Shown one piece after another: positions 9,114 through 24,570 of a stretch of 25,305 bases of DNA. The notes beneath the pieces were generated by a model. That model made no database searches and was not told the DNA's origin. It worked only from the letters and a program-made list of their open reading frames with translations. The DNA comes from Anaerolineae bacterium (lineage in GTDB: Bacteria; Chloroflexota; Anaerolineae; 4572-78; NAK82): assembly GCA_034412795.1 (NCBI GenBank), contig DAOUMD010000141.1, positions 1-25,305 on the forward strand, given 5' to 3'. How positions within the stretch are numbered: the stretch's first letter is position 1; every line of letters begins with the position of its first letter. Both the position numbers and the translations under genes were made by a program.

Positions 9114-9124
9114 ATATCATGCCT

Positions 9125-9162
9125 TAACCTTCCCGGAAGTTTCGGAACTTCCGGGAAGGTTA
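9125..9162 (+). terminator. Perfect 17-bp stem-loop (TAACCTTCCCGGAAGTT tcgg AACTTCCGGGAAGGTTA) after the DeoR gene. No U-tract.
   Basis: The two arms are exact reverse complements. Confidence 0.5.
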
Positions 9163-9223
9163 TCCACACACTGGTCCGAACATCACGCGCCGAACAGCGC
9201 GTCAATCAAACGGAGGATACGAA

Positions 9224-11314
9224 ATGGAAGCAACTGCATCGCTCACCGCCGAGAATATATCGGCCATGATAGAGGAACAGGCACTCACTAAAGAAGATCT
9301 GATGAATTACCTGCGCCAGGTGATGGAGATTCGGGCCTTTGAGAACAACATCTCCATTTTGCTGGGTAAGGCAGTTCTCAAGGGCGCGTCCCACCTGTAT
9401 GCCGGACAGGAGGCCACTGCCGTCGGCGCCGTCGGCGCGCTACGTGACGATGACCTGGTCACCAGCACTCACCGCGGTCACGGTCACGCCCACGCCCACG
9501 GCGATAGCGCGGCCAAGACGCCTGAAGCCAAGCAGGAGCACTACAATAAGATGATGGCCGAGGTCTTGGGGCGCTCGGGCGGCTATTGCAAAGGCAAGGG
9601 TGGTTCGATGCACATCGCCGACGTGGATCACGGCAACATGGGCGCAACCGGCATCGTGGGCGGTAACATCCCGGTAGCAGTGGGAGCCGCCCTGGCACAG
9701 AAATTGCAGGACACCGATCGCGTGGTGCTGTGCTTCTTCGGCGATGGCGCCTCCAACACGGGTAACTTCCACGAGGCGCTCAATATGGCCAGTCTGTGGG
9801 ACCTGCCGGTGATCTTCGTCGTCGAGAACAACATGTATGCTATGTCCGTCCCCTGGGCCAAAGCCAGTAAGCTGCCCAACATCGCCGATCGCGCTTGTGC
9901 CTATGGCATCCCCGGCGAGGTGGTGGACGGCATGGATGTCCTGGCCGTGCGTGGCGCTGTGGCCGAGGCGGTGGAACGCGCCCGGCGCGGCGAAGGTCCC
10001 ACCCTGATCGAAGCCAAGACCTATCGTTGGTACGGCCATTCCCATTCCGATCCGCGTGCCTACCGGACCCGCGATGAGGAGGCAGCCTGGAAGGAGCGCG
10101 ATCCCATCACCGTGCTCAAGAACAATATGCAGACCGTCAGTTTGCTGGATGAGGCCGAATTTGAAGACCTGGATAAAGCGGTCAAGGAAAAGCTTGATGT
10201 CGCCATGGCTTTCAGCGAAGCCTCGCCGGAGCCCGACCCGGACGAGCTGTGCACCGACGTGTATGCCCCCTCTAAATTCACCCAGGCGGACATCGATGCC
10301 GAGCGCGAGTTGCGCCAGCGGGTGCGCAATGGCTCGGATATACGAGAGATACCCTATGCCCAGGCTTTGCAAGAAGCCCTGCGTGAAGAGATGGAGCGCG
10401 ACGAGCGGGTCTTCATCTTTGGCGAAGACGTCGGGCTGTACGGTGGGGCTTACGGCGCGACCCGTGGCCTGTGGGAAGAGTTTGGCGAATGGCGCGTGAT
10501 CGACACGCCCATCTCCGAAGCGACGGTCGGTGGCGCCGCAGTAGGAGCGGCCATGGCCGGCATGCGCCCCGTGGCCGAGATCATGTACGTGGACTTCACT
10601 CCGCTGGCCATGGACCAGATCGCCAACCAGGGCGCCAAAAATCGTTACATGTTCGGCGGCAAAACCAGCGTGCCCATGGTCATCCGCACCGAGGGCGGCG
10701 CCGGGCGGGCCATCGCCGCCCACCACTCACAAAGCCTGGAGGCGCTCTGGACCCACTTCCCCGGCATCTACGTGGTCATGCCCGCCACGCCGTACGATGC
10801 CAAGGGGCTGCTCAAAGCCGCCATTCGCGACGACAACCCCATCATGTTCATCGAGCACAAGATGCTCTACAAGGAGAAGGGGCCGGTTCCCGAAGAGGAG
10901 TACCTTGTCCCGTTGGGTGTGGCCGACGTGAAGCGCGAGGGAGCGGACGTGACGCTGGTGACCTACTCGCGTATGGTGCTGCGCGCCCTGGAGGCGGCCG
11001 AGATCCTGGCTGAGGAAGGAATTGACGTCGAGGTGGTTGACTTGCGCACCCTCAAGCCGTTGGACATCGATACCGTCATCAACTCGGTGGTAAAGACCGG
11101 GCGTTTTGTGGGCGTCACCGAAGGCTACGAGAACACCAGCTTCATCAACGAGGTGATGGCCCAGGTCAACGATTTGGCCTTCGATTGGCTGGACGCGCCC
11201 ATGGTACGCGTGGCGGCGGCCAACGTGCCGGTGCCCCGTGCCGAGATACTGGAAGATATGGCCATCCCCAACGTGGGACGCATCGTCGAGGCCTGCAGGA
11301 AGGTGGTGAGCTGA
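9224..11314 (+). CDS. Fused 2-oxoacid (pyruvate/acetoin-type) dehydrogenase E1 component, with alpha (TPP-binding) and beta (transketolase-like) domains in one chain.
   Basis: The alpha half carries the TPP motif GDGASNTGNFHEALNMASLWDLPVIFVVENNMYAMS. The beta half carries EDVGLYGGAYGATRGL...transketolase_C. RBS CGGAGGA. 696 aa. Confidence 0.85.
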   Translation: MEATASLTAENISAMIEEQALTKEDLMNYLRQVMEIRAFENNISILLGKAVLKGASHLYAGQEATAVGAVGALRDDDLVTSTHRGHGHAHAHGDSAAKTPEAKQEHYNKMMAEVLGRSGGYCKGKGGSMHIADVDHGNMGATGIVGGNIPVAVGAALAQKLQDTDRVVLCFFGDGASNTGNFHEALNMASLWDLPVIFVVENNMYAMSVPWAKASKLPNIADRACAYGIPGEVVDGMDVLAVRGAVAEAVERARRGEGPTLIEAKTYRWYGHSHSDPRAYRTRDEEAAWKERDPITVLKNNMQTVSLLDEAEFEDLDKAVKEKLDVAMAFSEASPEPDPDELCTDVYAPSKFTQADIDAERELRQRVRNGSDIREIPYAQALQEALREEMERDERVFIFGEDVGLYGGAYGATRGLWEEFGEWRVIDTPISEATVGGAAVGAAMAGMRPVAEIMYVDFTPLAMDQIANQGAKNRYMFGGKTSVPMVIRTEGGAGRAIAAHHSQSLEALWTHFPGIYVVMPATPYDAKGLLKAAIRDDNPIMFIEHKMLYKEKGPVPEEEYLVPLGVADVKREGADVTLVTYSRMVLRALEAAEILAEEGIDVEVVDLRTLKPLDIDTVINSVVKTGRFVGVTEGYENTSFINEVMAQVNDLAFDWLDAPMVRVAAANVPVPRAEILEDMAIPNVGRIVEACRKVVS

Positions 11315-12690
11315 TGGCAGAGGAGTTCTTCATTCCCCAATTGGGGCAAACCGTCGAAGAGGTCACCCTCATCAAGTGGTTGGTCGAAGACGGCGCCCAG
11401 GTGACCCAGGGACAGGAGATCCTGGAGGTAGAGACCGACAAAGCCGTCTTCCCCGTCGAAGCCATCGCCAGCGGCTATTTGCACATCGGTCCCTACAAAG
11501 AGGGTGACGTGGTGCCTGTGTTGGCCGTGGTGGCCGTCATCGGCGCAAAAGATGATAAGTTTGAGGTGAAGGGCGAGCCTGAGCCCGCGGTGGAGGAGGC
11601 CGAAAGCAAGACGGTTGAGGCTGCCCCGGCTGCTCCGGTCGAGGCAGCACCTTCCCAGGTCCGAGAAGATGGGCGCGTCTTTGCCTCGCCGCGCGCCCGC
11701 AAGCTGGCCCACGAGAAGGGCGTGGACCTGGCCCGGGTGACTCCCAGCGGTGGCGGTGGCGTCCGCGTTGCCGAACGCGACGTGCTGGCTTATCTGCGCT
11801 CGCTGCCCAAAGCCACGCCCGTGGCCCAGAAGATGGCCGCCGAAGCCAGCCTCGATTTACGACAGGTGTCCGGCACCGGTCCGGGCGGCAAGATCACCCG
11901 CGAAGACGTCGAGCGTGCCCTTGCCGTGCCACCAGCACCACCGGCGGCTGTGCCGCCGGCGCCCACCCCCTTGCCGGAAGTCGAAGTCCTGGAGCGCGTG
12001 CCGCTCAAGGGGGTGCGGGGCATCATCGCCCAGCGCATGGCGACCAGCGTCCACACCACCGCCCGCGTGACGTTGATGATGGAGGTTGACGCCACCCAAT
12101 TCGTCGACATGCGGACGCGTCTCAAGGCGCGCGTCAGTGAGGAATGGGGCTTCGCCCCCGGCTACAACGACCTCCTGGCCAAGATCGTCGCCGCCGCGCT
12201 GCGCAAGTTCCCCTACATGAACGCCCGGCTGACGGCCAACGCGCTCGAATACCTGGCGCCTGTCAACATGGGCATGGCCGTCGACACCGAGCGCGGGTTG
12301 CTGGTGCCCGTCATCCGCGACGCCGACAAGAAGAGCCTGCGCCAGTTTGGTGCCGAGTTCCGCGAGCTGGCCGAGGGGGCGCGCACCGGCCGCATCTCGC
12401 CCGACGCTTTGAGCGGCGGCACCTTCACCATCACCAGCCTGGGCACGTACGACGTGGATGCCTTCACCCCCGTCATCAACCTGCCCGAAGCGGCCATCCT
12501 GGGCGTGGGCCGCATCACCGAAAAGGCCGTGGTGCGCGACGGGGAGATCGTCGCCCGTCACATGTGGACGCTATCCCTCGTCTTCGACCACCGCCTGGTC
12601 GACGGCGCCCCGGCCGCCCGCTTTTTGCAGTACATCAAGGAGCTGATCGAAGAGCCCTATTTGTGGGTGGCGGAGGGGCAGGAAGGCTGA
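11314..12690 (+). CDS. Dihydrolipoamide acyltransferase (E2) with one lipoyl domain, two peripheral-subunit-binding domains and a catalytic domain.
   Basis: Lipoyl-Lys in VETDKA. Two PSBD-like segments (ASPRARKLAHEKGVDLARVTPSGGGG; SGTGPGGKITREDVERA). Catalytic DHRLVDGA motif. Start ATG overlaps the E1 stop (TGATG). Confidence 0.85.
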   Translation: MAEEFFIPQLGQTVEEVTLIKWLVEDGAQVTQGQEILEVETDKAVFPVEAIASGYLHIGPYKEGDVVPVLAVVAVIGAKDDKFEVKGEPEPAVEEAESKTVEAAPAAPVEAAPSQVREDGRVFASPRARKLAHEKGVDLARVTPSGGGGVRVAERDVLAYLRSLPKATPVAQKMAAEASLDLRQVSGTGPGGKITREDVERALAVPPAPPAAVPPAPTPLPEVEVLERVPLKGVRGIIAQRMATSVHTTARVTLMMEVDATQFVDMRTRLKARVSEEWGFAPGYNDLLAKIVAAALRKFPYMNARLTANALEYLAPVNMGMAVDTERGLLVPVIRDADKKSLRQFGAEFRELAEGARTGRISPDALSGGTFTITSLGTYDVDAFTPVINLPEAAILGVGRITEKAVVRDGEIVARHMWTLSLVFDHRLVDGAPAARFLQYIKELIEEPYLWVAEGQEG

Positions 12691-12831
12691 TATAGTGGGA
12701 TAAACATGCTCGAAGGGGACGACAGTCCCCGTATCTTGTACGCTCAACGTTGCGGGCTTACGACATCCAGCGTCGCGGACTGTCGTCCGCTCGGAGCTTC
12801 TCACCAATCTGCGTAGGCCCCAATTCAGAAC

Positions 12832-12895
12832 GCCGGGGCGTCGTTGCCTGGCCCGCAGGCCAAGACCGGCAATGATGCCCCGGCTTTTTGTTTTT
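12832..12895 (+). terminator. Intrinsic terminator of the E1-E2 operon: stem GCCGGGG...CCCCGGC followed by TTTTTGTTTTTG.
   Basis: Stem arms 12832-12838 / 12877-12883 with a T-run at 12884-12895. Two short hairpins precede it (12714-12730 and 12773-12791). Confidence 0.55.
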
Positions 12896-12987
12896 GCTCG
12901 CTTGCGTCCCGCCCCACCCACCCCGCCCCGTCATCATCTCAAAAGCCCCCAGCTTCCCCCCCGCCAACCCGCGTCGAGAACGTTCCC

Positions 12988-13036
12988 CAATCTACCAGCA
13001 TACCAATCTACCAACCCACCAACCCCAAATCTACCA
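12988..13036 (+). promoter_or_regulatory. Three direct repeats of (C)AATCTACCA in a C-rich tract immediately upstream of the SPFH-gene promoter. Candidate activator-binding array.
   Basis: Copies at 12988-12998, 13003-13013 and 13026-13036, read directly. Confidence 0.35.
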
Positions 13037-13046
13037 AAAACCGACT

Positions 13047-13178
13047 TGATTTTTGTCGTAAAACATGGTATCATAGACATAATCATTTGTCATAACAGCA
13101 CAACCTGTTGTGTGCTGGTTAACAAGCGGACATGGTGCGAACTCCTCTCACTCCTCGACGCACCCTTTTTTGGTCATA
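13047..13178 (+). promoter_or_regulatory. Promoter (TTGATT 13047-52, N16, TGgTATCAT 13066-74) plus a 110-nt leader. The leader holds a hairpin at 13097-13116 and a terminator-like stem GGTGCG...CGCACC followed by CTTTTTT (13134-13171).
   Basis: Hexamers and stems read directly. RBS GGGAGGTGG before ATG 13193. Confidence 0.4.
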
Positions 13179-13192
13179 CGGGAGGTGGATGG

Positions 13193-14950
13193 ATGACGGC
13201 CAATACCGTAACCGCTGAGCAGTCTTCTGCATCAAGGGGATTGGGCACTCTCGGGACAGCCTTATTCTTTCTCTTAGTTCTGGTAGGTGTCTTTTTCTTC
13301 TATAGCCACTTCTTCGATTCGGGATATTTCGGAGACGATCTCTGGTGGCACCTGGGCACGATATGGTTATTGGTTGGGGTGGGGATATATGTCCTGTTTT
13401 TGCTGAATCCCGCCAAGCGAAGGTTCTGGTTGTTTGTCTACCTTATCTTCGTGCTTACTATCGCCTTCGGTGCTTTTTTCCAAAGCCAAATCACTGGCGG
13501 AACAGGGGTCACTCGCCTCATCCAGAATAGCCCTCTGCTCACCTCCTTATTCGGGGGATACTTCAAAAGCGTGATCTGGTCACTGGTATTTGGCCTATTG
13601 ATCGCGCTCTCTTTGGTTATTGTGCCCCTGCTCATCATTGCCTTCGCCGCCTCCGAATACGTGCTGGCCCTGCACGAAATCGACGGTGTTCGCCGTCGGG
13701 ACGCCGTGAGTTACGTGATTGCGTTGATACTGGGCATCAACCAGCCCTTCATCGTGGTCGAAGACGGCCAGGCGCTGGTTACCAAGGAGGCTGGCAAGAT
13801 CAACGTCATTGGTGGGCCAGGCAAGTTGATCATCAAGCAGGGCAACGTAGTTGTGTTGGAACGCGGCGGCAAGATCACGCGCGTGCTAAACGCCGGCGTC
13901 CACAAGCTTAAACCGCTGGAGAAGATACGCAATGTCTTCAACTTGGGCCGCCAATCCAACTCCGATGAGATAGAGCACGTTCTGACCAAGGATCGCATAC
14001 CGCTAAAGATCAAGTTGGGTATCGGCGTCCAGATTGAGCCGGCCTCCGAGGCCGACAAACGCCCCGAAAGCCGCATCTCGCCCGATGGGGAAGCGCTGAC
14101 CCCAAGACTGGACGACGGTATGTACGCAGTATACGAGGGCACCATTCGTAAGGCGGCTCAGATGTCCCAGGCTACCTCTTTTGCCAAACGTGAATTCAAG
14201 AAGTGTGACGAAGAGCAGGTATGTCAGGACGTGCAAGAGACCACCTGGAAAAAAGTCGCCGGCGGACTGCCTGAAGGTGATTTGCGCGACCATATTATGA
14301 GCCATCGATTTGACGAGTTATTTGAACTGGTTGACAGCGCACCCGGGGAAAAACCTGAGATTCGGGTCGACAAGCGCAAAATTTATGAGATTGAGCAAGC
14401 CATCCTTGAAAAAATCAAGCCCGGCAAACTAAAGGGACTGGGGGTGCTGGTGCACGGTGTGGATATTGGGAAGATCGAGTTTCCAGAAGAAGCGAAAGAC
14501 CTGTTGTTAAATCGCTGGGGAGCTCCGTGGCAACAGCAAATACAACTTATAGAGGCTAAGGCAAAAGCGAAGGGTGAGTTGCAAGCCAAATTACTGGCCG
14601 CTCAAGGCGACCTGGAGGCAACACGGATGGAAGCACAGGGTGAACGGGAAATCGCGGATCTGAAAGCTCAAGCTATTGTAATCAGTGCCCGCGCCAAAGC
14701 CCAGAAACGGGTTATGGAAGGGCGTAGTCAAGCAGAGGCGCGGGCAGCCTTCTTCCAGTTTATAGTGGAAGCACTTCAAGTGGATGGGCGCCCAATAGAT
14801 CCCCAACTAATGGGAGCCATACTGAAGGAATTAGCTTGCTCCTTTGCCTCAGTTAATGATCTTGAGACTTTCATGAGGGTGCATGGCAGATTGAATCGGC
14901 AAGCAGATTTCTCATTGGGTCAGGACAATGGGACAGTAGCAAGTGATTGA
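13193..14950 (+). CDS. SPFH/band-7 (stomatin/HflK/flotillin-like) membrane protein with a polytopic N-terminal domain (about 5 TM), a large insert in the SPFH core and a coiled-coil tail.
   Basis: VVLERGGKITRVLNAGVHKLKPLEKIRNV...HVLTKDRIPLKIKLGIGVQIEP aligns to the SPFH core (VVLRFGK..L.PGLHF.IPF...V....VLTKDG..V.VD.VVQYRI). C-terminal GVLVHGVDIGKIEFPEEA matches the end of the SPFH domain. Ala/Gln/Lys-rich coiled coil. Paralog of 22984-24570. The ORF-track start at 12872 is an upstream low-complexity extension. Confidence 0.75.
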   Translation: MTANTVTAEQSSASRGLGTLGTALFFLLVLVGVFFFYSHFFDSGYFGDDLWWHLGTIWLLVGVGIYVLFLLNPAKRRFWLFVYLIFVLTIAFGAFFQSQITGGTGVTRLIQNSPLLTSLFGGYFKSVIWSLVFGLLIALSLVIVPLLIIAFAASEYVLALHEIDGVRRRDAVSYVIALILGINQPFIVVEDGQALVTKEAGKINVIGGPGKLIIKQGNVVVLERGGKITRVLNAGVHKLKPLEKIRNVFNLGRQSNSDEIEHVLTKDRIPLKIKLGIGVQIEPASEADKRPESRISPDGEALTPRLDDGMYAVYEGTIRKAAQMSQATSFAKREFKKCDEEQVCQDVQETTWKKVAGGLPEGDLRDHIMSHRFDELFELVDSAPGEKPEIRVDKRKIYEIEQAILEKIKPGKLKGLGVLVHGVDIGKIEFPEEAKDLLLNRWGAPWQQQIQLIEAKAKAKGELQAKLLAAQGDLEATRMEAQGEREIADLKAQAIVISARAKAQKRVMEGRSQAEARAAFFQFIVEALQVDGRPIDPQLMGAILKELACSFASVNDLETFMRVHGRLNRQADFSLGQDNGTVASD

Positions 14951-14985
14951 TCCGCTCGCGCAGCCTCTGTTGAGACAAGGGATTC

Positions 14986-15105
14986 TAAGAACCTGTTTGA
15001 AAATTATTAACCCGTTGTCCCCCTACATATTGGGGGACACTGACCGATACGCCCACATGTAGGTTCAAACCGTTCCAAAACGTGCTAAGAGCCTGTTTGA
15101 AAATT
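14986..15105 (+). promoter_or_regulatory. Two 20-bp direct repeats TAAGARCCTGTTTGAAAATT exactly 100 bp apart, flanking a 7-bp-stem palindrome (GTCCCCC tacatatt GGGGGAC, 15017-15038). This is the upstream region of the S24 gene.
   Basis: Read directly: 14986-15005 and 15086-15105. Confidence 0.35.
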
Positions 15106-15129
15106 GGCTCTAAGTTAGGAGTGGCAATT

Positions 15130-17346
15130 ATGGCATCCCATAGACAAGCCAGTGATGAGATTATTCAGTTTCTGGAGGATTTTCAAGGTACATCACCAGA
15201 TTTGCCTATTTCAGTGGTCGGTCATTGGCAGGAGGCGATGGCAATATGCAAGAAAACAAAGCCGAATTGGAGCAAAGCTGCAGATTTTTGCAATTGCATT
15301 GCAACGGTTTTGAATGGATTGCGTGGCAGTGGAGGGGATTTGGGGCAACTTGAAAAATCTCAGGGACAGATTTCGATTCTTTTGGGTGCCATAAGTCTGG
15401 GCCAGAAAGACTGGTCTGCGGCAAGTTACTATTTTGAACAAGGAGCCAGACGGCTGAGGCAATGGGGGCACACGTCTCTCGAAAGTCTCGCCTATTTTGG
15501 CCGGGCTTTGACTCATAAGCAGGAAGAAAACTGGCCTGGGGCCTTGGAAGCGGCGCAAAAAGCATTGGATGCAATCCACGGCCTTCCTGTTCCTGATAAG
15601 TCGATGCATACTAAGCATTTGCAAAAGCGGATTGAGGAAGGGATCAGATCCATCGGGGAGGTCTCCGCGAGAGTTATTGCGAAACAACCACCAAGTCGGA
15701 GGCCAACGCCTTCTAGGTCTATGTCTAGCCCTCCCCTTCCAATACCGATAGTAAGCAATATTGCAGCTGGCCTCGGCGTCATTGTCGAAGAAAACATCGA
15801 GAATTATCTCCTCTTAGACGACGATCGCCGTAACGACGTCGACTTTGGGGTAAGAGTGGTTGGGGAAAGTATGAAAGGTGACGGCATCCTGCCGGGGGAC
15901 ATCGCCCTTATCCGCCAACAGCCAATAGTTGAAATGGGAGAGATCGCTGCTGTCGTTGTTACGACGCCTACAGGTTCCGAGGGTGTGCTTAAGCGATACC
16001 ACCTTGCATACGAAGAACGGCCGAGTATGTTTCACTGGTTCCTCAAGTCCAGCAATCCGGCCAGTGAGCACCTAGTTGTCATACCCAGTGGCGCAGATAT
16101 TATTGCAATCAAAGCTATATACGAGAATGCAATTCGATCTGGCCGAATACGCAATCCGATTGAGTATTACGAGGACGCTGAACTAATCATTGCCGGAAAA
16201 TATGTCGGATCAGTAAAGAGTATACCGATATCCAGTGACATCAGTGCCTTTACCGCCGGGCCAGGGCGGATTGGAGATGAAAACACTGAGGGGTTCATAT
16301 CTCTAGATGTGAGTTATCGCACTATGGTTGACTTTGGGGTAAGGGTGATAGGAGACAGTATGAAAGGTGATGGTATCCTGCCTGGGAATATTGCACTTAT
16401 CCGTCAGCAGCCAGTTGTTGGGGAAGGAGAGATTGCCGCCCTTGTGATTACAACATCGACTGGCAGGGAAGGGGTACTTAAAAGGTACTACCCCGAAGAA
16501 AGTGAGGGTTTGCAGCACTGGCTTCTTAAGTCTAGTAACCCCGTGGCCAAGGATTTAGTTGTTATACCGCCTCATACAGATGTAGATCAGATTCGGAATC
16601 TATATGCCAGGGAAATCCAGAGTGACAGGGTCGAGTTTTATGAAGATGCTGAACTAGAAGTCGTTGGCAAATATGTTGAGTGTTTCGAGGAGGAATCTTT
16701 TTCAGTTCCAGTTATCTCCACCATAGATAGGGTAAAGCAACCATCAGTGAAGACGGCTGTTGAGAGTTTAGGCGGTTACGCTGAAGTAGAGATTCTTGCA
16801 GGCAGGATTGCGGAAACTGTTAGTGAGCGTCTAACCGGGGCTACACATCAACTAGCCGAGGCTAATTACAGATATTATGACGAACTCAAAGGTATGATTC
16901 GGAAACTTCCGTTTGCTGGTATTGAAGTGCTCGATAACTTCGAAGGATTTGTAATTGCAGAAATTCCTGATGCTAGAAAGGAAACTGGCCAAGCCCCAAA
17001 CAAGGATCGCTATATTTTGCATGGGGCACAGAAAAAGCACGAGATACATATCTCCATCCAATCGGTTGAGCCTTTGGGAGCTACTGACAGCGTTGTTGAG
17101 ATTATTCGAATAATTGATGGTGAGGACGTGGAATATGTCAACTTTGTAGCCAGGTTGGACTGTAATACACTCGATTTTGAACAAGCTGAGTTTACAATTT
17201 CTGTTCCATCCAGATATGCAAAGCCGTCTATTCCGAAAAAAGTCGTTTCCATTACAGGCGAACGAGGGATACATAATCTATTCATTCATATCTCTCAGAA
17301 GAATACACTTGTCCAAGTCCTCTTCATAGAATTGGAGATTCGCTAG
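15130..17346 (+). CDS. Multidomain protein with a TPR-like helical N-domain, a Pro/Ser linker, two tandem LexA-like S24 peptidase domains and a C-terminal domain of about 230 aa that I cannot assign.
   Basis: Both repeats carry the Ser-Lys dyad context (RVVGESMKGDGILPGD...GVLKRY and RVIGDSMKGDGILPGN...GVLKRYY), closely matching LexA (RVSGMSMKDIGIMDGD...VTVKRL). Each is preceded by a LexA-like cleavage region (NIAA-GLGV and FTA-GPGR) about 33 residues before the Ser. RBS AGGAGTGG before ATG 15130. Confidence 0.8.
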   Translation: MASHRQASDEIIQFLEDFQGTSPDLPISVVGHWQEAMAICKKTKPNWSKAADFCNCIATVLNGLRGSGGDLGQLEKSQGQISILLGAISLGQKDWSAASYYFEQGARRLRQWGHTSLESLAYFGRALTHKQEENWPGALEAAQKALDAIHGLPVPDKSMHTKHLQKRIEEGIRSIGEVSARVIAKQPPSRRPTPSRSMSSPPLPIPIVSNIAAGLGVIVEENIENYLLLDDDRRNDVDFGVRVVGESMKGDGILPGDIALIRQQPIVEMGEIAAVVVTTPTGSEGVLKRYHLAYEERPSMFHWFLKSSNPASEHLVVIPSGADIIAIKAIYENAIRSGRIRNPIEYYEDAELIIAGKYVGSVKSIPISSDISAFTAGPGRIGDENTEGFISLDVSYRTMVDFGVRVIGDSMKGDGILPGNIALIRQQPVVGEGEIAALVITTSTGREGVLKRYYPEESEGLQHWLLKSSNPVAKDLVVIPPHTDVDQIRNLYAREIQSDRVEFYEDAELEVVGKYVECFEEESFSVPVISTIDRVKQPSVKTAVESLGGYAEVEILAGRIAETVSERLTGATHQLAEANYRYYDELKGMIRKLPFAGIEVLDNFEGFVIAEIPDARKETGQAPNKDRYILHGAQKKHEIHISIQSVEPLGATDSVVEIIRIIDGEDVEYVNFVARLDCNTLDFEQAEFTISVPSRYAKPSIPKKVVSITGERGIHNLFIHISQKNTLVQVLFIELEIR

Positions 17347-17349
17347 CCA

Positions 17350-18627
17350 ATGGGACGATCAGGGAAACGTAAGCAGCCCATTCTTACAATTGAAGTGTTT
17401 AGTATGAGTGACCAATCTACCGAAATAGGCTTCAGTGGTTCAGGTGATTTTCAAAGTAGAACATTTCGCATAGAGGATTTTGGTTATAGAAGCCTACCCG
17501 AGCATTTTGAACGTTATAGTTCAGCCTTGGAAAATCTCAAAAGAAAATTCGGCAAAGGTGACAAGCAGGAGCAGCCCAGTGAACTGAAAGAGGCAATCAA
17601 AGAACTCTCCAATGGCACAAGTTACTTATATAATTACTTATTTCGAAGACGTAATGATGTCTATGTGGACATCGTAAATCATCTAAGAAATCATATACCT
17701 ACGTCTGATCCAAGACGGGGCGAGGACGTGAACGTGATTGAGGTAAGGGCAAGTAGTATTAAGCATATTATTCCCATCGAATGTCTAGTGATGCCGGATC
17801 ACTCTTTGGGACTAGAGATCAAGGAGAAAAAAGATGTAGTCAGAGCCACATTAAACGTTCTAGGATTCTCGTTTATTATTAATCGAGTGGTTACACATAT
17901 GGAAAGAGTGAGCCAAAAACGAGAGCTTTGTAACGTTCCGGCGTTACCGCTGAAGCAGTTTTACGACGGGTCTCTCGAAGGGGCAGGATATGAGTGTGAT
18001 TTTTTTAAAGGCAAGAGGTTTGGAAGATATTTTCGCTTGGATGGTCCTTGGCCAGAGAGAGGCTCCGATTTTGAAGCGGAAGATGTGGTTCGATACTTCT
18101 ATAGACCCGATCTTGGGTTTGGTCAGGTTATTCAAGCAGAAGCAATAGGACGTCAATCTGACGAAATCCATCATCTATCTTGCCATTGCTATACGGATGA
18201 AAATGCCTCCTGGAGAAGTTTTTTACGTTTCACAGACAGACTCAAAGTAAGTTTAGAGGAAATGCAAAGTCATTTGCCGCATCTCAAATTCAGGGAATAT
18301 TCAGATAAGGAAATGCCTTTAATATTTCTAAATGCTTGCGGTGGCTCGAAGATATCCCCTGAAGGAATGACCTCTTTCCCCGACTATTTTCTAAACGACA
18401 ACCAAAACTGTGGATTTATTGGTAGTGAGACCAATATTCCGGATCCTTTTGCCGCCGAATTCTCTCAAGAGTTTTATTTAAACTTAATACGAGGATTCAC
18501 AATTGGCGAGGCTTTGTTCTGGGCACGTCATACAATGTTGAATAGGTACAACAACCCTCTAGGAATTCTCTACACGTTTTATGGAGATCCATATCTGAGA
18601 GTCACGAAGAAGGCAGATGACCTCTGA
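17350..18627 (+). CDS. CHAT-domain (caspase-like, clan CD) protease.
   Basis: His region EIHHLSCHCYTD and Cys region PLIFLNACGGSK, followed by a CHAT-like tail ending GDPYLRV. AT-rich codon usage like the upstream gene. Start 17350 versus 17404 is uncertain. Confidence 0.75.
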   Translation: MGRSGKRKQPILTIEVFSMSDQSTEIGFSGSGDFQSRTFRIEDFGYRSLPEHFERYSSALENLKRKFGKGDKQEQPSELKEAIKELSNGTSYLYNYLFRRRNDVYVDIVNHLRNHIPTSDPRRGEDVNVIEVRASSIKHIIPIECLVMPDHSLGLEIKEKKDVVRATLNVLGFSFIINRVVTHMERVSQKRELCNVPALPLKQFYDGSLEGAGYECDFFKGKRFGRYFRLDGPWPERGSDFEAEDVVRYFYRPDLGFGQVIQAEAIGRQSDEIHHLSCHCYTDENASWRSFLRFTDRLKVSLEEMQSHLPHLKFREYSDKEMPLIFLNACGGSKISPEGMTSFPDYFLNDNQNCGFIGSETNIPDPFAAEFSQEFYLNLIRGFTIGEALFWARHTMLNRYNNPLGILYTFYGDPYLRVTKKADDL

Positions 18628-18825
18628 AATCAGTTCATACAATTGAACGCCGAACGAAAAAATTAGAAAGCACATTAGACCAAATGATTAACAATATGGC
18701 CCCTTCACAATTGACAGTAGCGCCAACTAGGCAAGAAAGTCGGAGCACCACTCTCAGATTCGTTGACGTGTAAAGTTGGTAAGAAGACGCCAGCATTAAT
18801 TCAATTGCATAATTGAGGAGGAAGT

Positions 18826-19149
18826 ATGAGCGAGCGTACAATCGTAATAATCGGTCGGGAAGACACAGAGGATCGAGGTATCTTGGGCAATGCGAGTCAA
18901 TGGGTTTTTGAACGAGAGGAAGTCTCGGTAGATCACATAAAATCCCAACTCATTGATTTCCTTTCTAGCATGCAGGAAATCTTGGATGGTCTTCCAGACA
19001 AAATGGCTCGGTATGAACTTGAGTCGATGGATGTAAGCGTAGAGATCAGCACGAAAGGAAACGTAAGCCTTGTGGCGGTTGGTGGGGAGTTAGGCGGTAC
19101 GGGTGGCTTGACATTGCATCTAAAAAAGAAGTCACCAGGCCAGCAATAG
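18826..19149 (+). CDS. Small (107 aa) protein, function not assignable. Likely accessory component or substrate of the protease pair.
   Basis: Strong RBS GAGGAGG 5 nt before ATG. Gly-rich C-terminus (AVGGELGGTGGLTLHLKKK). Same AT-rich block and strand as the protease genes. Confidence 0.55.
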   Translation: MSERTIVIIGREDTEDRGILGNASQWVFEREEVSVDHIKSQLIDFLSSMQEILDGLPDKMARYELESMDVSVEISTKGNVSLVAVGGELGGTGGLTLHLKKKSPGQQ

Positions 19150-19775
19150 AGCATCCTAATCAAGAAACTGATTGATATATTGTTATTATGGCAAGCTGAT
19201 AGATCACAATCACGGAATTACTAAGAGTGGTGATTTGAGCGACAGGGGTATCCTGCAATGGTCCTCCATCACTTCATTTCATACCATACCACTTCGACCA
19301 AATTTCCTAGCGTAGGCAGCGTCCATAGCGCAAACTACCATAGGGCATGTTGTCATCTCGAAGGATCATCCTATGATCAACTAAGACTGCTTACCCTATG
19401 TCTAAGGACATTGGTCACAAGTTAAGCAGATTGGAAATTTGTCAAATTCATGCCCTACACAATAACACAGGCCATCAAGGCTGAGATTTCGCAAAGTTCT
19501 AATCAAGCCAGTTTGTTTCACCTAAGTGTTCGTTGGTACATCTGGCTGTGACCATAGCCAAATTGACCAAGAGCTTGTTGAAAAATCGGCTGGAAATCTA
19601 TAAGTTTCTACCTTGACAAATCGCGAAAACGCTTAACTTGTAGGTTGTGGTCTAAGACAGTAGCTCCTTAGTATCTGTAAAGAAATAACTTGTGAGTTTT
19701 GGTCCTACATAACGCGCAAAGAATCACAACTTATTTTTTTACAAGTACTTAGTTAAGATCGTGCTGAGGTGACCT

Positions 19776-20858
19776 ATGCCAGTCTGTGTATCGTGTCGCG
19801 GAGAATACTGGGCTCCAACCGGAAGTGGGCAGAACACTAGTGAGCAACCACGGGATGCACCTACACCATCCGCATTCGATCAAATTGCGCGGTCTGAAGA
19901 AAGCCAAGCACCCGAGGCACCCGCATCGACACATGCGTCACTCTCCCCATCATCAGGCCTGGCGGAGGCATACGACCTGCGTGACCTGCCGCCCTTCGTT
20001 TGCGCCCGCTGCCGTCAGAGCAACCGGCGCTGGCACGAGTGGGCTACCGCCCGCTTTGGCGCCCATTTTATACGTTTCTTCTTTCAAAGCATTCCCTGGG
20101 GTTTGCTGGCATTAATCTCCTTCTTGTTGCCTCTGGTAGCCATCGCTGCCGCCGACACGATCACGCCTGTCGCCTCGGTGCGCATCGGGATTCCCCTGGC
20201 CCTCTTGCTGATCTTTGTCAACGTCGCGTTGCTGTACGCCATCAAAAACTCATTGTGGCGCTACGATGTCTTGAGCCGGGTCGGGCGTGGCTTCAGGCCG
20301 TCGCTGGTCACGCTGGGCGTCACCTTTTTTATCCTGGCGCTGATCTTCGGCCTGGCTCTGGTCTTCATGATGGAAGCCCGCGCCGACGACCCGGAGGCGG
20401 GGCCGACCCAGGGGCTGCTGCGTGTGCTGACCACCATTATGCTGGCGCTGACCTTCGTCAACGTGACAATCTCCGCTATGTTCTTATCCGCCCACGATTA
20501 CGCCAAATGGCTCGACCGTGAGATGCCGCAACCCATCTACGCCCAAGAAAAACGCTTGTTGAGGCTAATTGAGGACGGCGTGTTAGCAAGCATCAAGCGG
20601 GCGACAGGCAAAGAGGATGAGGGAGTGGCAACCACTATCGTGGATATGGAGCGTTGCAAGGATGGCGGCGCTGACCTGGTGATCGGCGCCGAGGTCGCAT
20701 CGAACGGAGACGGGTCGCTGATGAAGTTGCAGAACTGGCAGGTTAAAGCTGATCGCTGGGGCCGAATAAGGAAGATGAGCCGGGAAGGTCCCCCTCAGTA
20801 CGTGGAGTTGCCCGTTGCCGAAAGCTCTGAAGATGATGAAGGTCAAGGGAATGGATGA
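19776..20858 (+). CDS. Zinc-ribbon (CxxC...CxxC) multi-TM membrane protein with a cytoplasmic C-terminal domain that I cannot assign. Paralog of the next gene.
   Basis: N-terminal CVSCRG...CARCRQ, then 3-4 hydrophobic helices. C-terminal motif WQVKADRWGRIRK shared with the next gene (WRVVSDKWGRVTQ). RBS GAGGTGA. Confidence 0.65.
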   Translation: MPVCVSCRGEYWAPTGSGQNTSEQPRDAPTPSAFDQIARSEESQAPEAPASTHASLSPSSGLAEAYDLRDLPPFVCARCRQSNRRWHEWATARFGAHFIRFFFQSIPWGLLALISFLLPLVAIAAADTITPVASVRIGIPLALLLIFVNVALLYAIKNSLWRYDVLSRVGRGFRPSLVTLGVTFFILALIFGLALVFMMEARADDPEAGPTQGLLRVLTTIMLALTFVNVTISAMFLSAHDYAKWLDREMPQPIYAQEKRLLRLIEDGVLASIKRATGKEDEGVATTIVDMERCKDGGADLVIGAEVASNGDGSLMKLQNWQVKADRWGRIRKMSREGPPQYVELPVAESSEDDEGQGNG

Positions 20859-20920
20859 TGCTGGCTGTGTGAAACAGCCGCTGCCATCACGTCCCGCAGC
20901 GTACACCGGATGGAGTAAAC

Positions 20921-21928
20921 TTGTTTAATGAACGTCCCACACCTTTGCCCTGTATAGCCTGCCACACATCCCTGTCTCCTGCCTCCCTCGACTGCTGCCC
21001 CCGCTGTGGCGCGGATAATCGCGCCTGGTTTACCTGGCTGTCTGCCGATCAAAGGGACCACCTCAAGCGATTTTTCCTGCGTAGCCCCTGGGGCCGGCTG
21101 GCGCTGGTCTCGCTGCTCTTGCCCCTTATTTGGGGTGCTCTTAGTGGGCTGCCGGCCTTTGAGACGGTGGTTCTATTTCTGGCGTTCCTGCTGAGCCTGA
21201 CCGGTCTCGTTTTTCTCTTCGCCAGGCGAGATGTCCTGTCCATCCACGACATGGCGCGCCGCGTTTCCCCCGGTCTTCATCCGGAGTTGCTGTCCCTGGG
21301 TGGTACAGGCTTCCTGGTATTCATTGGGGTCGCCGCGATCCTGGTGATCGCTTGGGGATCCGAAGTGTTGGGGGGTGGGCCATCAGCCTTCAACACGTTA
21401 GGAGGTGGGGCTATCGTCTTAGTCGGGCTGGCTTTCACCACCCAGACGTTGGGAGCCGGTCTATATGCCGTGTGTGCCTATGGTCATTGGCTATGCCGCG
21501 CTTTCCCCAGGCCCGTCTTCCTGGACCAGGCGCGGCTTCTGCAATTGGTCCTGCGCGCGGTGGTGCCCCGCATCCAGGTCAAAACGGGCGACACCTATGA
21601 GGCGGTGGCGGCCCAGGTCGTGGCCCTGTCACGCACTAACCGGGCGGGTCTGGATGTGTTGATTCGGGCCGAGGCCGGGACGGACGAGGGTTGGGAGGGA
21701 CACTACCTCAAGGCGGTTCAGCATTGGCGCGTCGTCTCCGACAAGTGGGGGCGTGTGACACAACTGAAACCCCAGGGGCCCCTGGAGTACCTCCCCGATC
21801 TGGACCGCGTGGCCACACCCTTCGCCCCTGGGGATAATGGGGAGAAGGTCTTGGATGGCAAGATTATACCCCCGGAGAAGGAGATATTCCATTATAGGGA
21901 GGTCAGGGATTATCACTTCCGCAAGTGA
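20921..21928 (+). CDS. Second zinc-ribbon multi-TM membrane protein (tandem paralog).
   Basis: CIACH...CCPRCG zinc ribbon, TM helices, and a C-terminal domain homologous to the previous gene. Probable TTG start preceded by GGATGGAG. Confidence 0.6.
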   Translation: MFNERPTPLPCIACHTSLSPASLDCCPRCGADNRAWFTWLSADQRDHLKRFFLRSPWGRLALVSLLLPLIWGALSGLPAFETVVLFLAFLLSLTGLVFLFARRDVLSIHDMARRVSPGLHPELLSLGGTGFLVFIGVAAILVIAWGSEVLGGGPSAFNTLGGGAIVLVGLAFTTQTLGAGLYAVCAYGHWLCRAFPRPVFLDQARLLQLVLRAVVPRIQVKTGDTYEAVAAQVVALSRTNRAGLDVLIRAEAGTDEGWEGHYLKAVQHWRVVSDKWGRVTQLKPQGPLEYLPDLDRVATPFAPGDNGEKVLDGKIIPPEKEIFHYREVRDYHFRK

Positions 21929-22012
21929 CCATAGTGATACTCGATGGCCGAATCGTGGCCTGTCACATTCAATCAGTTGACAGGCAATAACCGCACTAAC
22001 CGCACAACTTTC

Positions 22013-22040
22013 TTGACAGAGCTGCACAATGTGGTATAAT
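22013..22040 (+). promoter_or_regulatory. Near-consensus sigma70 promoter: TTGACA (22013-18), N16, TGgTATAAT (22032-40).
   Basis: Hexamers read directly, in an AT-rich intergenic region. Confidence 0.5.
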
Positions 22041-22320
22041 TGCTAAAAATAGAACAAATGTCCTACAGCAGATATAAGTTTGTGATTGTACAAATTTCCA
22101 TGTCAGTATGAAAGTAATCTTCCAAATTACGTCTCTATGTTGTTTCTTTCTTCTTTGCCTTCTGTGTGTTGCTGCTGGCTATCTCAGGCTGCGCGATGAT
22201 GGCTATATAGGGCTGGAGATTGTTCATACATATTTGCCCAGTCTGATAAACCGTGATCGCAGAACCTTCGCAAGGGTGGCTGAGCAGTTACCTTCATAGG
22301 AAGTTCTAATGAGTTGGTGG

Positions 22321-22349
22321 TTGACAAATGTTATGGCGTATGTTAGAAT
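22321..22349 (+). promoter_or_regulatory. Second strong promoter: TTGACA (22321-26), N17, TAGAAT (22344-49).
   Basis: Read directly. Lies about 160 nt upstream of ATG 22510. Confidence 0.45.
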
Positions 22350-22509
22350 ATCTACAAGCGGATGGAACTGCAGTATCATTAACCAAAGAGATATATCGAA
22401 TTCTGGCTACTGGCTTTGCTGGCTGTCGACCTGATTTTCGGCATGAGGTGATTGACGCTATAGCAAAGTCATTGCCTTTTCGTTGAAAGGAATTGTTTTG
22501 GAGGTTGTA

Positions 22510-22764
22510 ATGCCAGACAGTAGAAGAGGTTCCAATTCGCGGCTAGAAATCTGGTTCAAGGATGAAATTGAGAACACACTAAGTGCAATAGACTTGGCAA
22601 ATGAGGAGTTGTTCGAGATTGTCTGTGTTCCTGAGATGCAGCTCTACCGCCAAGGTTACCAAGCTGCGCTGCGAGCTGTTGCGGAGGCATTTGGAATTCG
22701 GCGTGAGCTGACAGCAAACGGCACTGGACGATCACCGAATATCATAGACGCCAACCCTCGCTGA
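22510..22764 (+). CDS. Hypothetical 85-aa protein in an AT-rich mini-module.
   Basis: GGAGG 4 nt before ATG 22510 (MPDSRRGSNSRLEIWFKDEIEN...). Followed by a strong terminator. No family recognised. Confidence 0.45.
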   Translation: MPDSRRGSNSRLEIWFKDEIENTLSAIDLANEELFEIVCVPEMQLYRQGYQAALRAVAEAFGIRRELTANGTGRSPNIIDANPR

Positions 22765-22811
22765 GCTGGTTCAGAAAATTGAGAGGTTGGTTCGGCACAT
22801 TGATACTTAAA

Positions 22812-22852
22812 CACACTCGGGGAGGTACGAGTGTGTTTTCTTTTCTTTCCCC
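22812..22852 (+). terminator. Rho-independent terminator: stem AACACACTCG / CGAGTGTGTT, loop gggaggta, tail TTCTTTTCTTTCC.
   Basis: 10-bp perfect stem and U-rich tail, read directly. Confidence 0.6.
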
Positions 22853-22983
22853 TTGTTAATACTTGCTGAAGTACATCCCTGCTCTAGGCTGGCTAGGCAC
22901 GATGGCGGGTGCTTCGGGTGTTGCGTATTTTCAGCTTCGCCAGCTATTAATTGGTGTTGTTCACAGTTCTTCCTTTCTGCTCT

Positions 22984-24570
22984 TCAATCAATTGACCATT
23001 TGGACGTATCCGCAGATTGTGCCATGTCACCAGGCAGTAGCGGTCCTTGGATCTGAGTTCCTTGCAGCGTGGCAATAAGAAGCCGCCTGTCCTCAGCTTT
23101 GTTCAGGCACTCGTACAGCGTCTTTATTGTTTCCTTCATCGCATCTTGGTCAAGGAAATGGCGCAGCAGCCTAAGCATTTGCTCGAATTGCTTCGCTCGG
23201 ACCTCAGCTTCTGCCTCGCCACGAGTAACAAGAGCCCCCTTCTCGGCTTCGGCCACGATCTCCTTCACCCTGGCATCCGCATGGGCCTCTAACAGCCTGA
23301 GTGCCCGCTCTTGTACTTGATCCGGTAACTTCACACCCTGGATGTCAACGGCGCGAATTCTTATGCCAAAGTTCTTAGCAGCAGCTTGGGCCCACCGGTC
23401 CAGAATGTATTGTTCTATCTCTTGGATGGTTCGCTGGTCTTCTTTAAACTTTTTCGGTAAGCTACTGTTCTCGTCGAAACCGACCGGGCGTAAAATCTGA
23501 TCAAGGCGATAGGTCGCGATCGTGTCCCGCAGTTGTGACTCCGCCCCGGCCACACTGAGGATCTCCCAGCCGGCGGGTGTCACATTCAGGCCTGCCTTGC
23601 GGACGTTCTCCACCCAGACCGGGTAGTCGCCGCCAATCATAACCTCTTCCTTACCGGCCTTCAAATCATTGATGAGCCGGGTCAGCTTATCCCGTTCTTC
23701 GCCCTCATTCTTGGCTAACTCTTCCTCCAAACGCTTGATAGTATCAGGCAAAGGCTCAATTTGATAGCCCACGCCCACTTTTAAGGTCAACCGCACCCCA
23801 TCGCTGGTCAGGACATCCTCTATTTCTTCGGTTTTCCACAGCGGGTTGAGACGCACAATCTTGTAGACGTACTCGTATAACCTGGTTTTGAACACGCCTG
23901 GGCCCCTAATCTGTGTGATCTTGCCGCCTTTCTCGAGTACCACGGCGTTGCCAGGCCGGACGATCACCCGGCCTGGTCCACCGATCGCGGTTAAGACTCC
24001 CCGTGATCGAGCCCGTGTTTCCCGCCCGTCTTCTATGATCACCCATGGATAGTAAGTTCTGAAGATCAATGAAAATAGCCAGCGCACGGCGTCACGCTGG
24101 GTGATACCTTTGTAATCATGTAGGGCGAGCAGAGGCACTGTAGCTAGCCACATCAGGAAAGCCAGTGGCAAGAGCAAGACAATGACAACCACAACCCCGG
24201 CGAGAAAGCCCAACGCCGCTTGTAAGGCAAGCGCGTTGCGGGTGGTGGCTGCCAACCTGGATTCTCGAGCTGCGGCCGCGATGGCGGGACTGGTAGCGAT
24301 GAAGGTCTGCACCAATGTCGCTACTAACAAGATGACGAAGAGGAGAATCCAGACGAAGGCCAGAAATCGAAAAAGTGGCTTCACAAAGAGTCGGAAAAAT
24401 AGGAGTCCACCCAGGAAGCCCACGGCATAACTCAGCCTCCAGTCGATTTGATATGTGGCGATGGTGAGAAAGATCAATCCAAGCGCAACTAGCGCCATCT
24501 GTACCCCTCCCCCACTTAGCTCGGTCGCTTTCTTGGGTACTTCGCTGGAGATGTCCGTCGTACTGGTCAT
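22984..24570 (-). CDS. SPFH/band-7 membrane protein paralog (polytopic N-domain plus SPFH core with insert plus coiled coil).
   Basis: RGVLTAIGGPGRVIVRPGNAVVLEKGGKITQIRGPGVFKTRLYEYVYKI...DVLTSDGVRLTLKVGVGYQIEP aligns position by position with the 13193-14950 protein. RBS GGAGGAA before ATG. Confidence 0.75.
   Translation of the reverse strand: MTSTTDISSEVPKKATELSGGGVQMALVALGLIFLTIATYQIDWRLSYAVGFLGGLLFFRLFVKPLFRFLAFVWILLFVILLVATLVQTFIATSPAIAAAARESRLAATTRNALALQAALGFLAGVVVVIVLLLPLAFLMWLATVPLLALHDYKGITQRDAVRWLFSLIFRTYYPWVIIEDGRETRARSRGVLTAIGGPGRVIVRPGNAVVLEKGGKITQIRGPGVFKTRLYEYVYKIVRLNPLWKTEEIEDVLTSDGVRLTLKVGVGYQIEPLPDTIKRLEEELAKNEGEERDKLTRLINDLKAGKEEVMIGGDYPVWVENVRKAGLNVTPAGWEILSVAGAESQLRDTIATYRLDQILRPVGFDENSSLPKKFKEDQRTIQEIEQYILDRWAQAAAKNFGIRIRAVDIQGVKLPDQVQERALRLLEAHADARVKEIVAEAEKGALVTRGEAEAEVRAKQFEQMLRLLRHFLDQDAMKETIKTLYECLNKAEDRRLLIATLQGTQIQGPLLPGDMAQSADTSKWSID

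Follow-up and report, generated by a model that had tools for sequence, protein, structure and literature searches.

A GC trough in an Anaerolineae SPFH/zinc-ribbon operon: a resident AT-rich S24 gene and a probable slot insertion of a CHAT-Pepco module

Does a trough of GC content inside a bacterial operon mark, by itself, a piece of DNA imported from elsewhere? The question is raised by a stretch of 25,305 nucleotides from an Anaerolineae bacterium (Chloroflexota; contig DAOUMD010000141.1 of assembly GCA_034412795.1, positions 1 to 25,305 of the forward strand), which is the window of this study. At 14951-19775 it contains an AT-rich block of protease genes between an SPFH gene and a zinc-ribbon (ZnR) gene, and the original prediction was that this block is a module acquired from a lower-GC donor and inserted into a pre-existing SPFH/Zn-ribbon locus. 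We consider a history in two parts to be the probable one: a resident operon received in its variable slot a module with Pepco, a predicted pore-forming effector, and cassettes were later exchanged at the same place, and the products would form an S24-CHAT-Pepco cascade. The features concerned are the following.

13193..14950, plus strand: SPFH1, SPFH/Band_7-domain protein that passes the membrane several times, first gene of the operon (NCBI call of 585 aa)
14985..15105, plus strand: two 21-nt direct repeats and a hairpin, in the SPFH-S24 intergenic region
15130..16221, plus strand: TPR-like N-terminal domain and first LexA-like S24 domain, codons 1-364 of the gene that we call S24x2 (GC 49.3%)
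16222..16704, plus strand: second S24 domain, S24x2 codons 365-525, with its own Ala-Gly (AG) site, serine and lysine
16897..17346, plus strand: adaptor domain, S24x2 codons ~590-738 (GC 42.7% and GC at third codon positions, GC3, of 0.38 over 16700-17346)
17350..18627, plus strand: CHAT (caspase/separase-like) cysteine protease, starting 3 nt after the S24x2 stop (GC 41.6%)
18826..19149, plus strand: Pepco, 107 aa, predicted protease-activated pore-forming effector (Pfam PF24393)
19150..19775, plus strand: spacer of 626 bp, 40.6% GC, specific to this lineage
19776..20858, plus strand: ZnR, with a zinc ribbon at its N-terminus, a beta domain at its C-terminus and four predicted membrane helices (58.7% GC)
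20921..21928, plus strand: ZnR2, of the same layout as ZnR, last gene of the operon (61.1% GC)

The extent of the insertion came out of the comparison with the loci of relatives (designated here by L numbers). DNA homology to L060, L061 and L058 covers 15127-16210, appears again over 16255-16678, where it is to the same S24 region, and resumes only at 19765. This right junction is located at the ribosome-binding site of ZnR, which is preserved, 10 bp 5' of the start codon. The left junction is an in-frame fusion inside the open reading frame (ORF) of S24x2. The CHAT and Pepco genes were absent from all the operon copies of relatives examined, in which the gap between the S24 and ZnR genes holds an antisense ORF with a LexA-type box, an insertion sequence (IS) element or only 53 bp. 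Since they are missing there, and their homologues (at most 49% identical) are found in unrelated contexts, the CHAT-Pepco part is a lineage-specific insertion, and the AT-richest one of the block. By homology we place the whole insertion at ~16222 (or 16500)-19764, i.e., 3.3-3.5 kb of 42-43% GC that comprise the second S24 domain, a linker, the adaptor, CHAT, Pepco and the 626-bp spacer. Compositional breakpoints at 16520 and 19760 coincide with the homology breakpoints (~16.2-16.5 kb and 19765). If horizontally acquired DNA is defined as absent in relatives and deviant in composition, only ~16222-19764 has both properties and 15130-16221 does not; the acquired module that had been proposed stands for the former part and not for the latter, which codes for an orthologous TPR-S24 protein with 51-61% identity to those of relatives.

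The SPFH/Zn-ribbon locus into which the module went was indeed there before. Relatives carry an operon of SPFH, TPR-S24, in some cases an ORF of ~110 aa (orf110), ZnR and ZnR2, placed downstream of the E2 gene as in the window; this is a conserved accessory operon of several Anaerolineales, SPFH/TPR-S24/variable slot/ZnR/ZnR2, located 3' of 2-oxoacid dehydrogenase genes. The layouts found were these.

L061/L062: SPFH (587) - TPR-S24 (360) - 53 bp - ZnR - ZnR2
L065/L066, L068/L069 and L064: the L061 layout plus a conserved ORF of ~110 aa on the opposite strand between S24 and ZnR
L060 and L063: a core of S24 - antisense ORF - ZnR, with an SPFH fragment upstream (L060) or none (L063)
L067: five genes as in the L065 type plus an IS element (DDE_3) in the S24-ZnR gap
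L058: E2 - SPFH - (Trypsin_2-TPR-S24, 754 aa) - (133-aa protein with four transmembrane segments, 4-TM) - (S24, 205 aa) - ZnR

Among the 36 homologues found for ZnR, the copy of L058 is 88% identical; the S24 gene is always 5' of them, the SPFH gene usually, and wherever the sequence of an operon copy reaches far enough, ZnR and ZnR2 are both present. These two are tandem paralogues (31% identity) without any Pfam family, and the structure model of ZnR was of low confidence (pLDDT 58). A metagenome scan with the ZnR alignment gave only two loci. SPFH1, in which Pfam detects Band_7 at 1.4e-08, has orthologues with 52-65% identity in L058, L061, L065, L067 and L068; an upstream extension of its ORF to 12872 was rejected as a probably false start, 13193 being the NCBI gene call. 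In L067 the insert at 5222-6309 consists of a DDE_3 transposase and a helix-turn-helix (HTH) ORF, and its position suggests that the S24-ZnR gap is a recurrent insertion site.

The GC-rich neighbours are not stable chromosome either. In L009, which is the closest complete genome (its DNA is 81% identical over E1-E2), only 539 bp separate the E2 stop from the homologue of orf84, and the whole locus at 12.7-22.0 kb (9.3 kb) is lacking. The right limit of this missing piece is marked by one more element of the window, since the same arrangement follows E2 in L009 (11626-11680).

22013..22064, plus strand: promoter TTGACA-16-TATAAT (sigma-70-like consensus), then a near LexA-type box, AGAACAAATGTCCT, 5' of orf84 (22510-22764)

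Beyond it, DNA synteny is restored, with 22530-22708 of the window matching 11907-12085 of L009.

The left third of the block is a different case. In eight other, independent loci no part of the operon is richer in AT than TPR-S24 (L058, L060, L061, L063, L064, L065, L067 and L068), the antisense ORF, where present, going with it. The GC content of TPR-S24 in relatives is 41-51%, always under that of the operon neighbours, over hosts of ~45-70% GC, as in these examples.

L061: S24 gene 47.5% GC; flanking operon genes 54-56%
L067: S24 gene 46.7% GC; flanking operon genes 55%
L058: S24 genes 46.5-47.2% GC; flanking operon genes 53-59%
L064: S24 gene 41.0% GC; flanking operon genes 44-47%
L068: S24 gene 46.5% GC (GC3 0.45); flanking operon genes 61-76% (GC3 0.80-0.89)

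As no carrier has this gene without the AT-richness, the low GC of 15130-16221 is no mark of recent transfer. Codons 1-364 of S24x2 align collinearly with stand-alone proteins of 346-363 aa (L060, L061 and P0098) and end exactly at their C-terminus. At the same loci protein identities are 51-61% for TPR-S24, 52-65% for SPFH1 and 54-65% for ZnR (88% with L058), so the protein is as diverged as its neighbours and its AT-richness looks like a lasting property of the gene, not a recent import. On the same grounds we rejected the S24 gene as a recently shared cassette. By these alignments codons 1-364 are the TPR-S24 orthologue that belongs to the operon itself; candidate causes of its low GC are a selection that keeps expression low, or an AT-rich pool from which the gene was replaced repeatedly. 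Comparison with relatives thus divides the block: its left third has orthologues of the same low GC, which for this part is the very outcome named beforehand as refuting the import, and the rest is absent from the relatives. A GC trough alone is then no boundary of transfer, given that its left third is an orthologous gene that is AT-rich in hosts of ~45-70% GC, and only composition and synteny together delimited the true insertion.

The compositional anomaly had been estimated by eye and was borne out by the scans, for which the yardstick was the 25-kb window plus the relatives' loci instead of the whole genome. GC was 44.5% in 14951-19775 (40.8-52.4% in windows of 500 nt) against a mean of 53.7% for the window, and the minima of GC3 and of the codon adaptation index (CAI) in the window were the genes of the block.

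S24x2 gene: GC 46.8%, GC3 0.44
CHAT gene: GC 41.6%, GC3 0.39
Pepco (small ORF) gene: GC 47.2%, GC3 0.48
Spacer 19150-19775: GC 40.6%, GC3 not applicable
Transporter, DeoR, E1 and E2 genes (core of the window): GC 55-67%, GC3 0.68-0.81

GC3 over the block genes spans 0.38-0.48. With the transport and dehydrogenase core genes of the window as reference, CAI was 0.38-0.42 for the block genes and 0.56-0.72 for the core, while the composition-normalised tetranucleotide correlation to the core was 0.34-0.46 for the former and 0.66-0.67 for SPFH1 and ZnR. The flanks had been described as 58-60% GC, which is right for the side of ZnR and ZnR2 (58.7 and 61.1%) and wrong for that of SPFH1 (52.4%). Neither is 14951 a sharp edge in composition: penalised likelihood segmentation put 12981-16520 into a single segment of 50.6% GC, followed by 16521-19760 with 42.1% and 19761-21840 with 60.4%, the strongest break being at 16520 and not at 14951. 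The low GC of the spacer is in itself unremarkable, because intergenic DNA elsewhere in the window is AT-rich as well (mean of 48.4% outside the block, 42.2% at 21929-22509).

The left junction can be followed inside S24x2, a continuous ORF of 738 codons from the ATG at 15130 to a last base at 17346; the GTG at 15082 was rejected as start, as a copy of the 21-nt repeat and the ribosome-binding site would fall inside the gene. Pfam finds two Peptidase_S24 stretches (78 bits) and weak TPR matches below threshold, PHROGs gave matches only of S24 repressor/UmuD type, and the NCBIfam lexA model scored 72, under its cut-off of 111 and over the protease part only. No HTH family, the DNA-binding part of a LexA/CI-type repressor, was matched in S24x2, its N-terminal 200 residues giving only the sub-threshold TPR. 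Both S24 copies keep the Ala-Gly site (AAG/TAG), the G(E/D)SM serine and the LKRY lysine, with a LexA-like distance of ~35 residues from AG to Ser, and with this Ser-Lys dyad and cleavage site both are predicted to be LexA-like autoproteases. The first and second copies are visible even in the DNA as an internal repeat (15838-16003 and 16327-16492, 73% identity). Actually, it is only in its N-terminal half that the second S24 is similar to the first copy (0.7-0.8 identity). Two indels and a PPHTD motif of its C-terminal half are shared with P0103, a TPR-S24-adaptor protein of 531 aa from elsewhere. The second domain is therefore probably chimeric, a first-copy N half joined to a P0103-type C half, and the crossover likely lies near nt 16460-16520, at the compositional breakpoint of 16520. 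Over codons 365-738, S24x2 aligns collinearly with P0103 (residues 188-523; 39% identity, E 7e-76), which indicates that S24 sensors fused to the adaptor exist independently. The full-length TPR-S24-S24-adaptor architecture gave 0 matches among 1.84 billion representative proteins.

The other genes of the insertion also have a life of their own. The CHAT protein matches its Pfam family at 9.4e-09 (35.5 bits, cut-off 24) and has H275/H279 and C330 invariant across 33 homologues. Its AlphaFold model (pLDDT 89.4) had as top PDB matches Csx29/Craspase, separase and SAVED-CHAT, with Foldseek E-values of 2e-10 to 1e-7 against Csx29 and separase, and from the family match, the His-Cys dyad and the modelled fold we predict a caspase-like protease. 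It ends 198 bp 5' of Pepco, which is assigned to PF24393 by residues 22-101 (65.9 bits, cut-off 27), so that the effector gene is adjacent to a protease. Looking up six CHAT homologues (eight loci, the contig of the window included), CHAT was followed by Pepco in all of them. The gene 5' of the pair has a variable N-terminal part (STAND NTPase parts or proteins of 710 aa of no known kind), and for every CHAT-Pepco pair examined its C-terminal ~150 residues are homologous to S24x2 ~590-738, i.e., the adaptor. By BLASTP the adaptor matches L003_234, L008_223, L004_547, L006_708 and L007_727 at 27-42% identity; it belongs to no Pfam family, had no match in the word-indexed protein search and has no homotypic similarity to the N-terminus of CHAT. 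CHAT-Pepco with its adaptor is thus, from this recurrence of gene order, a portable module. The nearest CHAT homologue outside this organism is 49% identical, and the nearest ones are found in unrelated STAND-NTPase contexts. The triad of adaptor, CHAT and Pepco is AT-rich elsewhere too (in L003, 44-47% GC against 50-61%). Because the slot and these triads in other genomes stay AT-rich, a donor of lower GC, as had been proposed, is not required.

The comparison with L058 adds a later episode. Its DNA is 94% identical to that of the window across DeoR-E1-E2, and its own cassette, at 6525-9946, fills the same slot of the operon; its orf133 was considered as a Pepco and rejected, having no similarity and being the 4-TM protein instead. 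The identity profile is 85-95% over 13800-14500, falls to noise by ~14800 and is back at ~19800-19900. The N-terminal, membrane-spanning part of SPFH1 (13200-13700) is only 48-71% identical to L058, next to the 85-95% of 13800-14500, which indicates that SPFH1 is itself a mosaic. By these profiles the centre of the operon, ~14.55-19.85 kb, seems to have been exchanged between close relatives through crossovers in the 3' end of the SPFH gene and the 5' end of ZnR. This tract is close to the AT-rich block as first noted, and is an allelic replacement in a shared operon. Since the cassette of L058 is equally AT-rich (46.5-47.2%), the difference between the window and L058 is a swap of AT-rich alleles, not a low-GC import.

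Alternatively, all of 14951-19775, with the complete S24x2, could have been acquired in one step from a lower-GC donor, the 21-nt repeats marking its edge. GC, GC3, CAI and tetranucleotides are deviant over the block taken together, similarity to L058 (the closest carrier of the locus) is lost near these limits, and a lineage-specific 21-nt motif, always in direct orientation, is found both at the left edge and at a distance of 196 bp from the right junction. We nevertheless find the one-step import unlikely: TPR-S24 orthologues of the same low GC occupy the same place in eight other loci with a divergence equal to that of the flanks, the L058 cassette is as AT-rich, the strongest compositional break is 16520, and homology to L060 and L061 continues through 14900 and restarts at 15127. 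It is less probable still that there was no transfer at all, and that gene-specific constraint or relaxed codon selection acted, within a GC-rich genome, on genes that are weakly expressed and may be toxic. The AT trough of the S24 slot does persist over hosts of 45-70% GC, and other small or regulatory genes of the window have low GC3 as well (TetR 0.50, DUF4405 0.46, orf84 0.47); however, no other copy of the operon has CHAT, Pepco or the adaptor, their homologues are found in unrelated contexts, and the junctions of the insertion are sharp in sequence. As gene gain did occur, constraint can explain only the S24 part. That the contig is a chimera with reads of a lower-GC organism would be compatible with its source, a metagenome-assembled genome (MAG) of Chloroflexota/Anaerolineales identified as GCA_964501865.1, and with the abrupt shift at 19760, yet we hold such an artefact to be very improbable. 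The left junction is in frame within a continuous ORF of 738 codons, the right one keeps the ribosome-binding site of ZnR, and an identical sequence from S24x2 to SPFH2 is found in a separate and possibly independent Logan assembly (SRR14802572).

Several points weigh against the history in two parts that we favour. The crossover in the second S24 domain rests on a modest gap of identity (0.53-0.60 vs. 0.43-0.53) besides the two shared indels, the reference for composition is local, and the history gives no reason for the lasting AT-richness of the S24 gene. The insertion is marked neither by mobility genes nor by a tRNA gene, and flanking duplications that would be clean are lacking; the window does not resemble an integrase-type genomic island, with no recombinase domain in any of its ORFs and no tRNA gene. 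The databases searched hold no CHAT-Pepco relative above 49% identity. As to function, Pepco has but a short tail (KKKSPGQQ) past its predicted barrel, the rule published for cleavage, which is to follow a conserved Ile, comes from serine-protease partners and not from CHAT, and PADLOC-DB 2.0 (2023 library; nine proteins) gave no match to a known defence system. Scans of viral contigs with the CHAT and ZnR alignments gave no match.

The incoming module was probably a [TPR-]S24-adaptor protein with CHAT and Pepco, as P0103-like proteins suggest. Recombination inside the S24 coding sequence would have joined it in frame to the resident TPR-S24, the product being the unique TPR-S24-S24-adaptor protein. 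We infer both this route and the cascade of S24, CHAT and Pepco. A trigger, possibly RecA on single-stranded DNA, would induce LexA-type self-cleavage at one or both Ala-Gly sites, which would free or expose the adaptor domain; the adaptor would activate CHAT, and CHAT would trim the C-terminal tail of Pepco so that a pre-formed beta-barrel becomes a membrane pore and kills the cell (abortive infection). The Pepco of a Streptomyces Avs4 system (SsPepco) is a beta-barrel assembled in advance, which forms a membrane pore once the linked protease removes its C-terminal tail, and Pepco associates with both serine and cysteine proteases (bioRxiv 10.1101/2025.11.14.688446); pairs of Trypco and trypsin were first described by Kaur et al. 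(2020; PMC7159879). Three features fit a link to DNA damage or phage replication without being proof of it, namely the box of LexA type that relatives have, the scaffold formed by SPFH and the membrane proteins with a Zn ribbon. A bolder proposal, about which we are rather doubtful, is a three-tier proteolytic cascade, in which a tandem S24 that senses DNA damage, phage replication or another trigger acts on CHAT and CHAT on Pepco, grafted into an SOS-linked SPFH/Zn-ribbon operon whose slot would be a swappable AT-rich socket for cassettes of protease and membrane effector (CHAT-Pepco here, trypsin and 4-TM in L058).

The nearest known arrangement are the Pepco-protease modules (PMC7159879; bioRxiv 10.1101/2025.11.14.688446), in which a small PF24393 protein is found beside a protease (serine or cysteine) that works with a variable sensor, and which are likewise portable between sensors. 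Here, in contrast, CHAT stands alone as the protease and is coupled by way of an adaptor domain of its own kind, the predicted sensor has two LexA-like S24 autoprotease units in tandem behind a TPR-like N-terminal domain, the set is inside an SPFH/Zn-ribbon operon and the C-terminal tail of Pepco is short. Pepco and CHAT are found here together with a tandem LexA-like sensor, a type of sensor not mentioned in the preprint of Evans et al. (2025). With LexA, UmuD and lambda CI (peptidase S24), both copies share the Ala-Gly site, the Ser-Lys dyad and the LexA-like spacing, but there are two tandem S24 units, a TPR-like helical domain replaces the HTH and the C-terminal adaptor leads to a second protease. 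The fold of CHAT and its His-Cys dyad are those of the TPR-CHAT protein (Csx29) of Craspase, of SAVED-CHAT and of separase, and here too the protease is presumably held inactive until an upstream sensor acts; sequence identity is 9-14%, there is no CRISPR or cyclic-nucleotide context, and the presumed activator is the adaptor/S24 protein. The locus is suggestive of a caspase-style protease relay in bacteria. Accessory content, deviant composition, presence or absence in relatives and a recurrent slot (the IS element of L067) are shared with classical genomic or defence islands, which differ by their integrase, tRNA anchor or clean att-like duplications, whereas here a gene was fused in frame inside an operon. 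In Bacillus subtilis, pspA-ydjGHI codes for an SPFH protein with zinc-ribbon and membrane partners. Our operon is similar in make-up, and has in addition the S24 protease and, in relatives, the LexA-type box.

This box, the palindrome AGAAC-N4-GTTCT, is found where the antisense ORF and ZnR diverge, between the two, in all eight loci having that ORF (L060 9813-9826; L065 7817-7830; L067 6721-6734; L068 7812-7825; L069 7685-7698; L063 801-814; L064 9633-9646; L066 4487-4500), and we take it to resemble the LexA box of Gram positives and Chloroflexi. The window has no remnant of the orf110 of relatives and 0 exact boxes of the type GAAC-N4-GTTC along its whole length, and it appears to have lost the antisense ORF and its box from the S24-ZnR position. 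What these loci have in common is then an uncharacterised conserved operon with a LexA-type box, the middle of which hosts alternative cassettes of protease and effector in close relatives.

The other cis elements do not coincide with the limits of the insertion. The paired repeats that had been taken as the upstream bound of the block are real, a 21-nt motif CTAAGARCCTGTTTGAAAATT at 14985-15005 and 15085-15105 with 20/21 bases matching (0/100 shuffles gave such a pair), and they are located within the SPFH-S24 intergenic region, away from any homology breakpoint. A GC-rich hairpin (15017-15038) lies between the copies, the second of which ends 25 nt 5' of the S24x2 ATG, and the intergenic region is 179 bp long in comparison with 27-54 bp in L060, L061, L065, L067 and L068. 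A third, looser copy (AAGARCNTGTTNNAAAAT x3) is found at 19569-19586 (0/100 shuffles, for a pattern derived post hoc), 196 bp from the right junction, and all copies are in direct orientation. The motif was not found in the locus of any relative, i.e., it is lineage-specific, and none of its copies (15085, 19569) coincides with a homology breakpoint. It may possibly be an operator or a scar of recombination. The spacer is ORF-free and full of short repeats as described, with a length of 626 bp (625 claimed) and a longest ORF of 55 aa. Its direct repeat TAACTTGTRGGTTNTGG is present twice, a pair beginning with TAACTTGT, at 19634 and 19686 instead of the 19633 and 19688 given before, and the inverted repeat noted near 19419 belongs to a 29-nt pair, 19417-19445 and 19613-19641, with 79% complementarity. 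The spacer folds better than its shuffles (over 19150-19660, z is -2.8; over its full length it is -4.9, with 20 shuffles only), with a long hairpin at 19670-19749 just 5' of the ribosome-binding site of ZnR. Searched by tblastx and blastn against all the loci fetched, 19150-19775 gave no homology, and Rfam (E-value mode) had no match over 12600-23000.

Outside the operon, the window has a second AT-rich segment, 6261-8400 (46.8% GC), with TetR and DUF4405 genes on the minus strand (GC3 0.46-0.50). Similarity to L009 stops just to the left of DeoR (8249), and this segment may also be variable. Two short ORFs are probably gene remnants: 253-570 matches LacI only in part (the HTH end and the start of the sugar-binding domain) and 6578-6889 only the last 68 positions of Amidohydro_2. 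L060 (CP070692.1), a MAG labelled as Deltaproteobacteria, has the SPFH fragment, TPR-S24, antisense ORF and ZnR, with a DNA identity to the window of ~80% over the SPFH and ZnR genes and 67% over TPR-S24, which suggests either a transfer of the operon across phyla or a mis-binned contig; a Y1 transposase gene is located ~2 kb downstream.

On the right side, orf84 (22510-22764) and the opposite-strand SPFH2 (22984-24570) are a second conserved SPFH pair, also present in L065 and L009. Past the right end of the window follows an opposite-strand gene with response-regulator, APH-kinase and TCAD9 parts (L001 18097-21278); the TCAD9 domain has its name from ternary conflict systems. In several relatives (also L061, L065 and L067), such a gene and large response-regulator genes with GAF domains are found on the opposite strand, downstream of the locus.

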